Below are positions 21,001 to 30,000 of a stretch of DNA of 64,000 nucleotides, piece after piece. The position numbers were made by a program. The DNA comes from Escherichia coli. Its GTDB lineage: Bacteria > Pseudomonadota > Gammaproteobacteria > Enterobacterales > Enterobacteriaceae. Positions within the stretch are counted from its first letter, which is position 1, and each line of letters opens with the position of its first letter. The stretch lies in assembly GCF_041248615.1 (NCBI RefSeq), contig NZ_CP158426.1; one strand, given 5' to 3'.

Positions 21001-24000
21001 ACGAGGCTCATATAAATCTTCATCCAGAGCAGCTATAAAACCTGAATTATCTGCATGTTGGTTTATCTGATTTATCACAGAATCAAAAGGCATATCATTA
21101 TTTATTGCTACCAGAGCTGAATAACAAACCATTTCTCTTTGGCTTTTAATTTGTTTTTTTAACCACCCATGCATATATACCTTCTCAAAGGCGGTAATAA
21201 ATTGAGAAAAATCATCTAAATTAAAATCTTCTGTACGAGCCATTCGATTCATGAATGCCATAACCGGAGGAATCCACTCATCTACCCCTAAATTACTTAG
21301 CGATGCTATTTTTCGTCGTATTGAAGGGTGTTCAAAATCATTCTCTAAAATCTTAGTATAATTTTTTGCAGAATTAACCAACATCAGTGACATAGCAATA
21401 GCATCTCCATCAAATTGCTGCTGGAGATTTTCAATAAAAGCTTCAAAACCTTTTTGTAATACCCTGTCACGATCTTTTTTCTCGGAAAGCTTATGAAGAG
21501 TAAGAAATTTATCAAGCCGTCTCACTCCAACCATATCTTCAATTTGCGACCATGCTGATTCTATTTGCTCTGATTTTTTATTATGCGTAGAAGCTGATTC
21601 AAACAGTGCATTTTTTAAAAGATCTGCATTACTTAAAGGTAAACCTCGACTATTTAATACATTAAAGAGTCTAAATGATGATGCGAAATCATCAGTTTGC
21701 ACAAATACGATATATACATTTTGCAAAATATATTTAGCAAGCAACTTCAACTCATCAACAGATAACCGCAACAAATAATCTCTAATTGTTTCAGCGTTGC
21801 TAATGAATACTAACTCAGTATCCGATGGCTTTTCAGGTTTATAATCTTTAGAATCCTGCAGTATATAATATTTATAAAGATCATACTCTTTTTTTCTAAC
21901 AATTAGTCTTGGTTCATCAGTTTCATCAGAATAAACATCAATAGGCAGAACTCTTTTTTGCAAATCATCTTTTATCCCCTGAATCGGGATGATTTTTTTT
22001 AGCTCGGAGACAATAATGCTTAACGTTGTAAGACGTTGTTGTCCATCTACAACTTCATACTGATTTTGCCCTTTATTGATACAAATCATACTCCCAATAA
22101 AATATTCATTCTCTTCTGATTGAGAGCTTTTATAAATATCATCAATGAGTTGCTCTGCATTATCTACCGTCCAACTGTAAGGACGCTGATAAGAAGGAAT
22201 AATAAACTTTTTGTTTTCAGTAAGGATATCCTGCACCTTACATTCTTTAGCTTCCATTTCATATACCCAATCAAACAATCAACAATAACATTATCTTTCT
22301 TGCTCGAAAGAAACGCAACTATAAGATTTTTATATATTTTGTTAGAGTTGATATGGTTCCTGTAACTTCTGTTTATCTGTCTCTGATATGCCCAGATTAA
22401 TTCAAGCAAGATATAACAGAGATATCAATGTGATCTCTGCTACGTACTTTACGTTGAAACACCGCCCTAAATCATAGCCAGGCTATTGATTTTATGTACA
22501 ATCAGAATCGTCCTGATAAAAGCGAGAATACCCCATGGCGGAACTGAACCTAAGTAACCTGACGGAAGCAGACATCATTACCAAATGCGTTATGCCAGCC
22601 ATTCTCAATGCAGGCTGGGACAACACAACGCAAATCAGACAGGAGGTCAAACTCCGGAACGGTAAAGTCATCGTACGTGGTAAAGTTGCGGCACGCAGAA
22701 CGGTAAAATCTGCTGACATCGTGCTGTATCACAAACCAGGCATTCCCTTAGCCGTGATTGAAGCAAAAGCCAACAAACATGAAATCGGCAAAGGGATGCA
22801 ACAGGGCATTGAATATGCGCGCCTGCTGGACGTTCCTTTTGTTTTTGCCACCAACGGTGATGGCTTTATCTTCCGCGACGCCACCGCAGCCGAAGGTGAA
22901 TGCCTTGAAAAGCAAATAACGCTGGATGACTTCCCCTCCCCCGCTGAACTCTGGCAAAAATTCTGCCTCTGGAAAGGATACACACAAGCTCAGCTTCCGG
23001 TGATTACTCAGGACTATTACGACGATGGCAGCGGTAAATCACCACGTTATTACCAGCTTCAGGCAATCAACAAAACCATTGAAGCCGTCTCCAACGGGCA
23101 AAACCGCGTTCTGCTGGTCATGGCGACCGGAACAGGGAAAACCTATACCGCATTCCAGATCATCTGGCGCCTGTGGAAATCAAAAAATAAAAAACGCATT
23201 TTGTTCCTTGCCGATCGCAACATTCTGGTCGACCAAACCAAACATAATGATTTCCAGCCATTTGGTACGGCAATGACCAAAGTCAGCGGACGCACCATTG
23301 ATCCCGCTTATGAAATTCACCTCGCGCTCTATCAGGCTATAACTGGCCCGGAGGAAGACCAAAAAGCGTTTAAACAAGTCGCACCAGATTTCTTCGATCT
23401 GATCGTGATCGACGAATGCCATCGCGGCAGCGCATCCGAAGACAGCGCCTGGCGAGAGATCCTTGATTATTTCAGTTCCTCCACCCAAATTGGCTTAACC
23501 GCCACGCCAAAAGAGACGCATGAAGTCTCCAGCACGGATTACTTCGGCGATCCGGTTTACGTCTACTCACTAAAAGAAGGGATCGAAGACGGCTTCCTCG
23601 CCCCTTATAAAGTTGTCCGTGTTGATATTGATATAGACCTGCAAGGCTGGCGCCCAACCAAAGGGCAAACTGACTTAAACGGCGAAGTGATCGACGATCG
23701 TATCTATAACCAGAAAGATTTCGATCGCACGATGGTAATCGACGAACGCACAGAACTGGTTGCCAGAACCATTACCGACTACCTCAAGCGCACCAACCCG
23801 ATGGATAAAACCATCGTCTTCTGTAACGACATCGATCATGCAGAACGTATGCGCCGCGCCCTGGTTAATCTCAACCCGGAGCAGGTGAAAAAGAACGACA
23901 AATACGTCATGAAAATCACCGGCGATGATGAAATTGGCAAAGCTCAGTTGGATAACTTCATCAACCCGAAAAAACCGTACCCGGTTATCGCGACCACTTC

Positions 24001-27000: not shown

Positions 27001-30000
27001 TACTCTACTGTTCGCCCGTATTTGTTAAATATAGCTATTATTGAAAACGAAATACTACCTGAACCGATCGCTAGTACTGCCTTCGCTATTATTCATCCAT
27101 ATACGGCGATGGATGCTAATTTCATTTATTATTATCTACGTTCTCCGGTATTTGTTTGTTATGTTGAAAATTGTCAGACAGGGGTTGCCTATCCAGCAAT
27201 CAATGACAAACAATTTTTTTCTGGAATAACTCCAGTTCCTCCATCCTTGGAACAAGTTCGCATCGCAAACAAAATCAAAGAATTAATGTCCCTCTGCGAC
27301 CAACTGGAACAGCAATCCCTGACCAGTCTGGACGCACATCAACAACTGGTTGAAACCCTGTTGGGAACGCTGACTGACAGCCAAAACGCCGAGGAACTGG
27401 CTGAAAACTGGACGCGTATTAGCGAGCATTTCGACACACTATTTACCACCGAAGCCAGCGTGGATGCGCTAAAACAGACCATTCTGCAACTGGCGGTAAT
27501 GGGTAAACTTGTGCCGCAGGATCCGAATGACGAACCTGCCTCTGAACTGCTCAAACGAATTGCGCAGGAAAAAGCACAACTGGTGAAAGACGGGAAAATA
27601 AAAAAACAAAAACCGTTGCCGCCGATTAGCGATGAGGAAAAACCGTTTGAACTGCCGGATGGGTGGGAGTGGTGTCGTATCGTTGATTTAGCAATTGTAG
27701 GTACAGGCGCAACACCTTCTCGTGATGAGCCCAACTATTGGAAAAATGGAGTAATTAATTGGGTGACAAGTGGAGAAACTTGCTTACCTTTTATTCAAAA
27801 CACCACCGAACATATTACCCAAAAGGCTGTTGATGAAACAAATGTTTCAATCTATCCACCAGGAACTCTTATTATTGCAATGTATGGACAAGGAAAAACA
27901 AGAGGGCAAATCACAGAGTTATTAATAAGTGCTGGAACAAACCAAGCATGCGCAGCCATTCGATTAATCGAAACGGATAATGAGCATCGTAAATTTATAA
28001 AACTTTTTTTTGAAAAGTCTTATGATGATTTACGTAGTTTAGCCGCTGGAGGTGCACAGCCAAATCTAAATGTAGCAAAAATATCACAAACTGTTATACC
28101 ATTGCCCCCTAAAAGAGAACAAAATCGGATCGTTTCTATTGTGGGGGAGTTATTAATTTATTGCGATAAATTACGCAAAAATATCCAGACCGCCCAACAA
28201 ACCCAACTGCACCTTGCAGATGCACTAACTGACGCGGCGATAAACTAATTTTCTCGCCCTCAAAAAAACCAATAAAGCGGCTCAATAGCCGCTTTATTAA
28301 CATCACCAAAAATTATATTTCACGCTAATTTTCATCTTATTTTCATTAATTTTTAGCTGGACTTTCCCTGTATTTACTGATGATATATCCAGGTATTTAG
28401 CGCGGTGCGGATGTGCGCCAACACACCCACACCGCTCATCACAATCCCTATTTCACGAGAATAGTAATCATGACTGACACGCATTCTATTGCACAACCGT
28501 TCGAAGCAGAAGTCTCCCCGGCAAATAACCGTCAATTAACCGTGAGTTATGCGAGCCGCTACCCGGATTACAGCCGTATTCCCGCCATCACCCTGAAAGG
28601 TCAGTGGCTGGAAGCTGCCGGTTTTGCCACCGGCACGGCGGTAGATGTCAAAGTGATGGAAGGCTGTATTGTCCTCACCGCCCAACCACCCGCCGCCGAA
28701 GAGAGCGAGCTAATGCAGTCGCTGCGCCAGGTGTGCAAGCTGTCGGCGCGTAAACAAAAGCAGGTGCGGGAATTTATTGGGGTGATTGCGGGTAAACAGA
28801 AAGTCGCCTGATACATTGACCCGGTAGCGCCAGTGCTACCGGGTATTATTCGCCACGTTATACCAACGCGTTCTCCATCTGTTTTTCAAATGCCTGACGA
28901 ATTAATCCCATAATGTAAGGAAGTTGTGCGAGGTCGCTGAAACCAATTTCCACATCACCATTGCCCCAGCGCCCAACATTTGTCACATCTTTGGCAATAC
29001 CTTTCGGATCGACCAGTTCATGAAACTGCATATTAAGCGACAATCGCAGTCGGCTTTTTTGCGGCACAACATCAACAAAATTCGTTTCAGCTTTAAACGC
29101 AATATATAGCTTCAATACTTCCTGCGTGATCCCTGCGTCCAGGCGCATAACTTCATCGCGAAGATGATCGAATAACACTCGGCTATGCGAACCATCAGCA
29201 AGAAAAGGAAAATCATTCAGGCTGTAACTGGTTTTGTTTTCAGGCTGCCCCCGATAAACAGCTAAAACCTCTTCAGGAAGAGCAGGCGCTTGCCAAACCT
29301 GAACCGCAAGCTCCGCCAGACGATCGGCACGGGCATGAATGGCGGCTTCATCCCATTTTTCGCACTGTCCAAGACCGATATTCAAATAGAGCGGGCTATG
29401 TTTAAAGCCGTCTTCAATATCGCGTTTTTCCGCGAAAGGTCTGTCACTGTAGCGGGAGTTATAGCGCGTTAAAGTGAGATTCCCCAACGTATGTAACAGT
29501 TCTTTATGCACACGCTGCCAGTCGCTTCCCAGCTCTTCACGCCATTTAGCCGACAGATTTTCGTTCTGCGGCATAATATGCTCAATCGTAAACTCTTCCA
29601 CGCGCTCTCTGCGTTTATCGTTTTCCAGTCGTCGTAACCAGTAGCTGCGACTACGGAAGTTATAGAGATCGCGAACTTTTAATTCCCGTTTAAATTCATC
29701 ATCGTTGGGGAAACGACGATATGAAGGCAGATTCAGAAAATGTACCTGAATACTTTCCAGATATTTTTCTTTAATAATGACCTTATAAAAGGTAGCAAAC
29801 GTCTTGTTAAGAGAATTTGTCGGAATCGCACATACTGCACGGCGGAAAACATAAGATTCAATTAAACGAATTATGCTCAGGAAATCTTCGTGAGGCAAAT
29901 CGCCATTTTTATAGTCATGATAAAGCGCCAGTAAGAAAGGATACGCCACATCGACCTTTAACTCGCGCAAATCCTGAAAAGCCGTAGCAAGCGATTTGTC

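Follow-up and report, generated by a model that had tools for sequence, protein, structure and literature searches.

A conserved terminator-like hairpin ahead of hsdM and a putative hybrid specificity subunit in an EcoAI-family Type IB restriction-modification operon of Escherichia coli

Type IB alleles at the immigration control region of Escherichia coli have been known since the 1980s. EcoAI (E. coli 15T-), EcoCFTI (CFT073, GAGN7GTCA), EcoAO83I (GGAN8ATGC) and EcoO157ORF5947P (O157:H7) all belong to this Type I restriction-modification family and are allelic. For EcoKI, the Type IA system of K-12, an 'apparent terminator' behind hsdR is described alongside two promoters (PMC12707154), as are overlapping hsdM/hsdS codons (PMC3510504). 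At this hotspot, Type IA, IB and ID systems and GmrSD occur at frequencies of 14%, 11%, 12% and 12%, respectively (PMC12707154). We analysed a stretch of 64,000 nucleotides (nt) from E. coli contig NZ_CP158426.1 (assembly GCF_041248615.1; the whole stretch is hereafter called the window), which holds an intact chromosomal Type I operon, hsdR-hsdM-hsdS, entirely on the plus strand according to open reading frame (ORF) analysis, and a hairpin in the spacer between hsdR and hsdM. We consider it very likely that this is an EcoAI-family Type IB operon in which the hairpin would terminate hsdR transcripts, hsdM and hsdS would be expressed by read-through, and the specificity subunit HsdS would be a hybrid.

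In the immigration control region, the cassette stands where K-12 has its Type IA EcoKI genes. It is preceded by yjiA and followed by symE, symR and yjiS, the same frame as in K-12, as a comparison of the annotation of an identical RefSeq record with K-12 revealed. An earlier sequence-only reading of the window had correctly seen a different hsd family at the K-12 hsd locus, which is textbook knowledge, and its ORF coordinates, its HsdR length of 810 amino acids (aa) and its 1-nt hsdM/hsdS overlap are all borne out by ORF analysis and the TAATG junction. It had also taken the hsdR-hsdM-hsdS order and this overlap as pointers to Type IB; both features are present, but they do not discriminate, since both are also found in Type IA EcoKI. 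Indeed, the locus resembles that of EcoKI in its position (yjiA ... symE), gene order and overlapping hsdM/hsdS codons, while it differs in the length of HsdR (810 versus 1170 aa), in sequence (26.6%, 28.6% and ~23% identity for HsdR, HsdM and HsdS), in its hsdR-hsdM spacer, which measures 66 nt here and 200 nt in EcoKI, where there is room for a second promoter Pmod, and in its Type IV neighbours, namely two GmrSD-family genes as against mrr and mcrBC in K-12. With EcoAI and its relatives it shares gene order, chromosomal site and an HsdS layout with an N-terminal conserved region and an internal repeat, and its HsdR (810 aa) and HsdM (489 aa) exceed 99% identity to the O157 proteins. From the O157 system it departs only in the variable part of HsdS, where the first target recognition domain (TRD1) is the same and the second (TRD2) is unrelated.

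The hairpin consists of a left arm GCCTTCTGCAAC (24982-24993), the loop CATCAT (24994-24999) and a right arm GTTGCAGAAGGC (25000-25011), followed by CTTGTTTTT up to position 25020. It begins 14 nt past the hsdR stop codon, and its T-run ends 13 nt ahead of the hsdM ATG. The stem has a G+C content of 58% and the tail contains 7 U in 9 nt. The sequence-only reading had reported a perfect 12-bp inverted repeat with a 6-nt loop and a T-run at 24982..25020; this structure is present as described and goes beyond chance, with a predicted RNA folding energy of -25.5 kcal/mol in a 101-nt context, a z-score of -3.5 and none of 200 shuffled sequences as stable. It is among only four perfect inverted repeats of at least 12 nt with short spacers in the window. 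The hairpin sequence is single-copy, which rules out a repeated element such as a repetitive extragenic palindrome (REP).

We examined the conservation of this element in 80 loci with HsdM relatives (76-100% identity) from species-representative genomes, 70 of which have hsdR upstream on the same strand. A hairpin with a T-run stands 10-29 nt before the hsdM ATG in 29 of these 70 loci, including essentially all Enterobacterales, and 8 further loci have a hairpin and T-run with 42-206 nt to spare before hsdM. RNAalifold, applied to 23 Enterobacterales sequences, yielded an 8-bp consensus stem in which five of the eight pairs show compensatory changes on both sides. The stem sequence thereby varies from clade to clade with pairing kept (e.g. 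GCCTTCTGC.., GCCACCTGTGGC, TGCCACTGGCCGC and GTCTGTCACCG), and the T-run is always found on the sense side. Since pairing is maintained across differing stems and the T-run is sense-sided, the element is best understood as an RNA structure, and specifically as an intrinsic terminator. A G+C-rich stem-loop, an immediate U-tract, a position after a stop codon and compensatory conservation are all found together here. Hence, the hairpin is, judging from its sequence, most likely a Rho-independent terminator of hsdR transcripts, and it would stand just outside the footprint of a ribosome halted at the hsdR stop codon.

Two of the survey loci call for a separate remark. HsdM is 100% identical to the E. 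coli protein in L002, from a metagenome-assembled genome labelled 'Bacillota bacterium' (JAEWTL010000091.1), and 89% identical in L019, labelled 'Chryseobacterium sp. 18061' (CACSKA010000009.1), and both have junctions of the Enterobacterales type. These contigs most likely reflect contamination or mis-binning rather than recent transfer.

The 12-bp stem, short loop, U-rich tail and distance of 14 nt from the stop codon are those of canonical Rho-independent terminators, which do not, however, stand 13 nt before the next start codon with no promoter between. With such a placement, the hairpin should behave as an intra-operon attenuator and not as the end of an operon. With a mere 13 nt from the T-run to the hsdM ATG, no promoter can be accommodated downstream of the hairpin. 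A sigma-70 scan of the window found no site between 24680 and 25034, and when 22 loci were scanned less strictly over the 300 nt that precede hsdM, no sigma-70 site was conserved in position. Given the lack of room downstream and of a conserved promoter upstream, we infer read-through: transcripts of hsdM and hsdS probably have to cross the hairpin, unless they begin inside it. Their mRNA would come from read-through transcripts started at the candidate hsdR promoter Pres, at weak promoters inside hsdR, or at both. The hairpin would then set the ratio of hsdR to hsdM-hsdS message as a leaky intra-operon attenuator, instead of insulating two independent units. The separate control of nuclease and methylase proposed by the sequence-only reading thus finds no support in the sequence, given the 13-nt gap and the absence of a conserved promoter or of synonymous constraint upstream. 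Three further candidates were considered by eye and rejected as weak or not conserved: TGGCAT-N5-... as a sigma-54 site, TTGCAG-16-TGGAAT as the promoter of a leaderless start, and the hairpin loop as a -10 element.

Several observations weigh against termination followed by read-through. Weak or non-sigma-70 promoters are invisible to the scans used here. Not every member of the family has the element: 21 of the 70 loci lack a canonical hairpin with a T-run according to the strict scanner, among which a few (L018-L020) fold as a bulged hairpin followed by a T-run and several have 20-62-nt spacers without structure. In the remaining 12 loci, mostly from Vibrio, 1.1-2.8 kb are inserted between hsdR and hsdM. 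Furthermore, obligatory read-through implies that hsdR message is at least as abundant as that of hsdM and hsdS, which is opposite to the usual expectation for restriction-modification systems. In RNA sequencing (RNA-seq) contrasts of deletions in CFT073, which carries a Type IB system, hsdM changes by -7.4 and -10.2 log2 versus -2.4 and -3.7 for hsdR; hsdM mRNA could accordingly be the more abundant of the two in this strain, a comparison that is confounded by the extent to which each gene was deleted. A Term-seq data set for K-12 (PMC7815308) contains no hsd entries. For Type IB strains, the covered part of the EDL933 Cappable-seq tables (PMC10469882) shows neither hsd names nor positions 54899xx-54925xx, and RNA-seq of EDL933 in 11 conditions (PMC4048457) and RIBO-seq of Sakai (PMC5597208) yielded no hits.

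The inserts of the Vibrio group are those of L036 (780-3500), L038 (2160-3500), L041, L050, L051, L054, L056, L063-L065, L068 and L069. They encode small ORFs of ~120-132 aa on the opposite strand without a Pfam match, and that of L036 additionally encodes an N6_N4 DNA methylase. Type IB-family loci of Vibrio often carry 1.1-2.8 kb of additional genes at the place where the E. coli operon has only its short spacer.

Among other explanations of the hairpin, the one that survives best is that it stabilises, or modulates the translation of, the 5' untranslated region of an hsdM-hsdS mRNA started at a Pmod promoter inside the 3' end of hsdR, and does not terminate hsdR transcripts. A perfect TATAAT at 24905-24910 would suit such a promoter, in the K-12 spacer, too, a -10-like TGTGTATATT is followed by a hairpin that stands ~22 nt ahead of the hsdM ATG, and the CFT073 RNA-seq hint of more hsdM than hsdR message points in the same direction. 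The TATAAT, however, has a poor -35 element and is missing beyond the closest relatives, being confined to a group of E. coli, Citrobacter, Kluyvera and Pseudocitrobacter. Nor is there synonymous-site constraint at the 3' end of hsdR: across its last 200 codons, synonymous-site diversity in 24 sequences ranges from 0.27 to 0.53 per 15-codon window around a gene mean of 0.42, and the only strong dip (0.19) falls at codons 1-15. Moreover, the conserved T-run right after the stem is a terminator signature, and transcripts from such a promoter would still meet the terminator. Altogether, we regard this explanation as unlikely. The K-12 hairpin just mentioned is a stem-loop GCGGCTC...GGGCCGC with a weak U-rich tail in the hsdR-hsdM spacer (L083, 11072-11094, minus strand), so that Type IA and IB loci may have in common a hairpin that immediately precedes the ribosome-binding site of hsdM.

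A promoter overlapping the hairpin, with the loop CATCAT as its -10 element, would let hsdM-hsdS transcripts start in the right arm and escape the terminator, which would amount to true insulation of the two units, as in the separate control of the sequence-only reading. The loop (24994-24999) agrees with TATAAT at four of six positions, A2 and T6 among them, the leader of a transcript begun near 25006 would be 27 nt long and contain the Shine-Dalgarno sequence, and TGGCATCAT, which resembles an extended -10 element, occurs at the right arm of some Rahnella and Buttiauxella loci. We nonetheless find this quite improbable: there is no acceptable -35 element (CTCTCT or TCTCTT), the site is below the threshold of the scan, and the loop is not conserved (CACCGC, CGTCTG, GCCT and others). 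Less credible still is an action of the inverted repeat as DNA, be it as a protein-binding palindrome, a cruciform or a joint at which the hsdR and hsdMS modules recombine: it does sit exactly at a boundary of genes that evolve at different rates (HsdM 76-100% identical where HsdR is 60-99% identical), and TGCCAC in the left arm and GTGGCA in the right arm are fairly conserved in one clade, but stems are wholly different between clades with pairing kept, the asymmetric sense-strand T-run is conserved, the locus has no regulator gene and the repeat is single-copy.

The termination and read-through that we favour are assigned to an operon whose family membership is secure by sequence. HsdR matches the NCBIfam equivalog model NF046051 (EcoAI/FtnUII) over its full length with 1189.7 bits (cutoff 550), while it scores 215 bits against the EcoKI-type model PRK11448, below the cutoff of 729. 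Its Pfam domains are HSDR_N, ResIII, Helicase_C and EcoEI_R_C, those of HsdM are HsdM_N and N6_Mtase (8e-94), and Methylase_S was found in HsdS as two stretches. The PADLOC profiles for Type I restriction enzyme, methyltransferase and specificity subunit all match over their full length, with 1701 bits for REase_I PDLC03049 on HsdR and 855 bits for Specificity_I PDLC03179 on HsdS. Identity to the counterparts in O157:H7 EDL933 is 99.4% for HsdR and 99.6% for HsdM. The O157 subunits are in turn 99% identical to EcoAO83I, for which the identities to EcoAI are 99% in HsdR and 98% in HsdM, and those to EcoKI 26% and 28%, respectively (PMC2481252 Table 1, Weiserova and Ryu), so that the link to EcoAI is an indirect one, through the EDL933 alignment and then these published values, whose pattern our identities to EcoKI reproduce. 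Within a family, HsdR similarity is usually above 80-90%, with EcoEI (77%) as a known exception.

The closest solved structure is that of HsdR from Vibrio vulnificus YJ016 (3H1T; E = 1.4e-156, residues 5-558), which comes from another genus and comprises an N-terminal fragment only; its authors consider it akin to Type IB (PMC2777439). The PDB sequence matches of HsdR at E<=1e-3 include neither an EcoKI nor an EcoR124I chain. Accordingly, the Type IB call of the sequence-only reading holds, on the NF046051 match, the EcoEI_R_C domain, more than 99% identity to the O157:H7 subunits and less than 30% to EcoKI, and the alignment to EcoKI that it had proposed as a check speaks against Type IA, as does the length of HsdR. 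Curated hidden Markov models (HMMs) and near-identical annotated genomes settle the family, and the chance that the operon belongs to another Type I family (IA, IC, ID or IE) or to a novel compact one is negligible: only the generic Type I domains and the HsdM-specific NCBIfam model TIGR00497, which stays below its cutoff, would allow it, whereas the full-length NF046051 match, the PRK11448 score and the EcoKI identities argue against it, refuting IA through these identities and IC through the missing EcoR124I match, with ID and IE not compared directly. The strictest criterion for Type IB is complementation or subunit exchange with EcoAI/EcoEI subunits (PMC2481252, PMC12707154), and cross-reaction of antibodies with EcoAI subunits is another classical one.

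The catalytic motifs of HsdR and HsdM are intact. HsdR retains GTGKT (residues 199-203) and DECH (residues 293-296), as well as D61/E76/K78, which would be the counterparts of residues reportedly mutated in EcoAI (Janscak et al. 1999). HsdM retains DPACGTGGF at residues 191-199 and NPPF at residues 273-276. By family knowledge, an HsdM2HsdS1 complex would methylate a bipartite target, and with two HsdR subunits it would translocate and cut unmodified DNA. The hsdM start at ATG 25034 is aligned across 23 orthologous junctions, agrees with that of the NCBI Prokaryotic Genome Annotation Pipeline (PGAP) and is preceded by a GGA Shine-Dalgarno sequence at 25024-25026. The longest hsdM ORF (24998..26503) opens at an ATG inside the hairpin loop and corresponds to the 501-aa version used by some NCBI entries. 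As hsdM starts, this ATG 24998 and ATG 25022, both upstream in frame, were rejected for being not conserved or out of frame in other genera. At the hsdM/hsdS junction GGAGGTTAACTAATGAGT, the TAA stop (26501-26503) overlaps the ATG (26503-26505) by 1 nt, with a GGAGG Shine-Dalgarno sequence ahead; the TAATG overlap and this GGAGG suggest that translation of hsdS is coupled to that of hsdM.

HsdS comprises an N-terminal conserved region, TRD1 (~aa 101-266), a central conserved region and TRD2 (~aa 397-560). An internal repeat of ~60 aa, LAV(R/M)GKLVPQDPNDEPASELLKRIA..., is found at ~aa 46-107 and 321-381. Type IB HsdS is marked by an N-terminal conserved region ahead of TRD1 and by a direct repeat that begins near aa 50 and again near aa 325 (PMC2481252), and the domain order of HsdS has been given as D2-S1-D1-S2 (PMC3874165); the repeat and layout observed here agree with both. 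From residue 1 to ~395, identity to EDL933 HsdS is ~99%, but TRD2 bears no relation to its EDL933 counterpart. Of 5,426 complete E. coli genomes, megablast found the DNA encoding TRD2 in just five, namely NRZ14408, OW967178 and three records of sequence type ST2747; the exact HsdS protein nonetheless occurs on 690 contigs of a large protein collection. Exchange of TRDs is a mode of Type I diversification (PMC3874165), and we infer from the sequence that HsdS is a natural hybrid of the O157 TRD1 and a rare TRD2 with a hybrid specificity. Because TRD1 is that of the O157:H7 enzyme and TRD2 is rare and unrelated, HsdS would read the 5' half-site of O157 together with another 3' half-site, and its recognition sequence probably differs from that of the O157 enzyme. 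In Type IB targets, 9 bp lie between the two methylated adenines of the bipartite sequence (D = 9, PMC12707154 Table 1).

Table 1. Positions of the operon genes, the hairpins and candidate promoter elements in the window.
Feature	Position	Strand	Basis or remark
Candidate hsdR promoter Pres, TAGCCA-16-TACAAT	22475..22502	+	33 nt before hsdR ATG; consensus scan only, 9/12 matches
hsdR, Type IB (EcoAI family) restriction/translocase subunit, 810 aa	22535..24967	+	HMM, Pfam, PADLOC, identity
Perfect TATAAT within hsdR 3' end, poor -35	24905..24910	+	Possible weak internal promoter, speculative
Hairpin resembling an intrinsic terminator, perfect 12-bp stem, 6-nt loop, tail CTTGTTTTT	24982..25020	+	Fold, inverted-repeat scan, conservation
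hsdM, N6-adenine methyltransferase subunit, 489 aa	25034..26503	+	Pfam, identity, start alignment, PGAP
hsdS, specificity subunit, 581 aa	26503..28248	+	Pfam Methylase_S, PADLOC, internal repeat
TRD2-coding segment of hsdS	27691..28182	+	Rare variable domain, megablast
Hairpin 3' of hsdS, 12-bp perfect core, 4-nt loop	28268..28301	-	T-run on minus strand only (GGTTTTTTTGAGG), A-run on plus

The sequence is identical base for base across 30.2 kb to E. coli NRZ14408 (NZ_LT599825.1), where PGAP labels hsdR as EcoAI/FtnUII family, and the same hsdR-hsdM junction is present in ~955 of the 5,426 complete E. coli genomes. As such, the system is of an ordinary, known kind that is annotated already in public genomes. 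GmrSD-family Type IV genes (GmrSD_N plus GmrSD_C) lie on both sides of the cassette, at 20605-22260 and 28858-30951, both on the minus strand, and candidate Pres sits within the 274-nt divergent spacer that separates the upstream one from hsdR. The downstream gene encodes 697 aa with an additional C-terminal DUF5655 domain. This ORF is unbroken (equal to L001 18559-20652), yet PGAP gives a 387-aa gene plus an 'incomplete' DUF262 pseudogene; the split annotation in NRZ14408 is possibly an artefact. In EDL933, the counterpart consists of two genes.

Between the cassette and this gene, the antitoxin RNA symR (28399-28475, minus strand; Rfam SymR, 88.1 bits) and the toxin gene symE (28470-28811, plus strand) are kept as in K-12. 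The hairpin downstream of hsdS lies ~100 nt past the end of symR and is missing from the K-12 locus. Its probable role is to keep antisense transcription out of hsdS, to mark where the hsdS mRNA ends, or both.

In summary, our analysis points to a conserved terminator between hsdR and hsdM that transcripts of the methylase and specificity genes would cross, and to an HsdS whose specificity probably differs from that of the O157 enzyme. A terminator abutting the hsdM ribosome-binding site questions whether the two-promoter model of EcoKI fits Type IB. A general rule, namely that in Type IB systems of Enterobacterales hsdM and hsdS have no promoter of their own and are transcribed only via read-through of a conserved terminator 10-20 nt before the hsdM start, is put forward here very tentatively, and we consider it unlikely. 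If true, the operon would contain a built-in and possibly condition-responsive attenuator, which might, for example, sense how transcription and translation are coupled at the hsdR stop codon, 14 nt upstream of it. It would then fix or tune how much nuclease message there is relative to methylase message, unlike in the two-promoter EcoKI paradigm that is assumed for all Type I families. Finally, if HsdS is such a hybrid, a clinical lineage (NRZ14408, ST2747) is predicted to methylate and restrict DNA with a specificity not yet characterised, which would bear on its plasmid uptake and genetic tractability.

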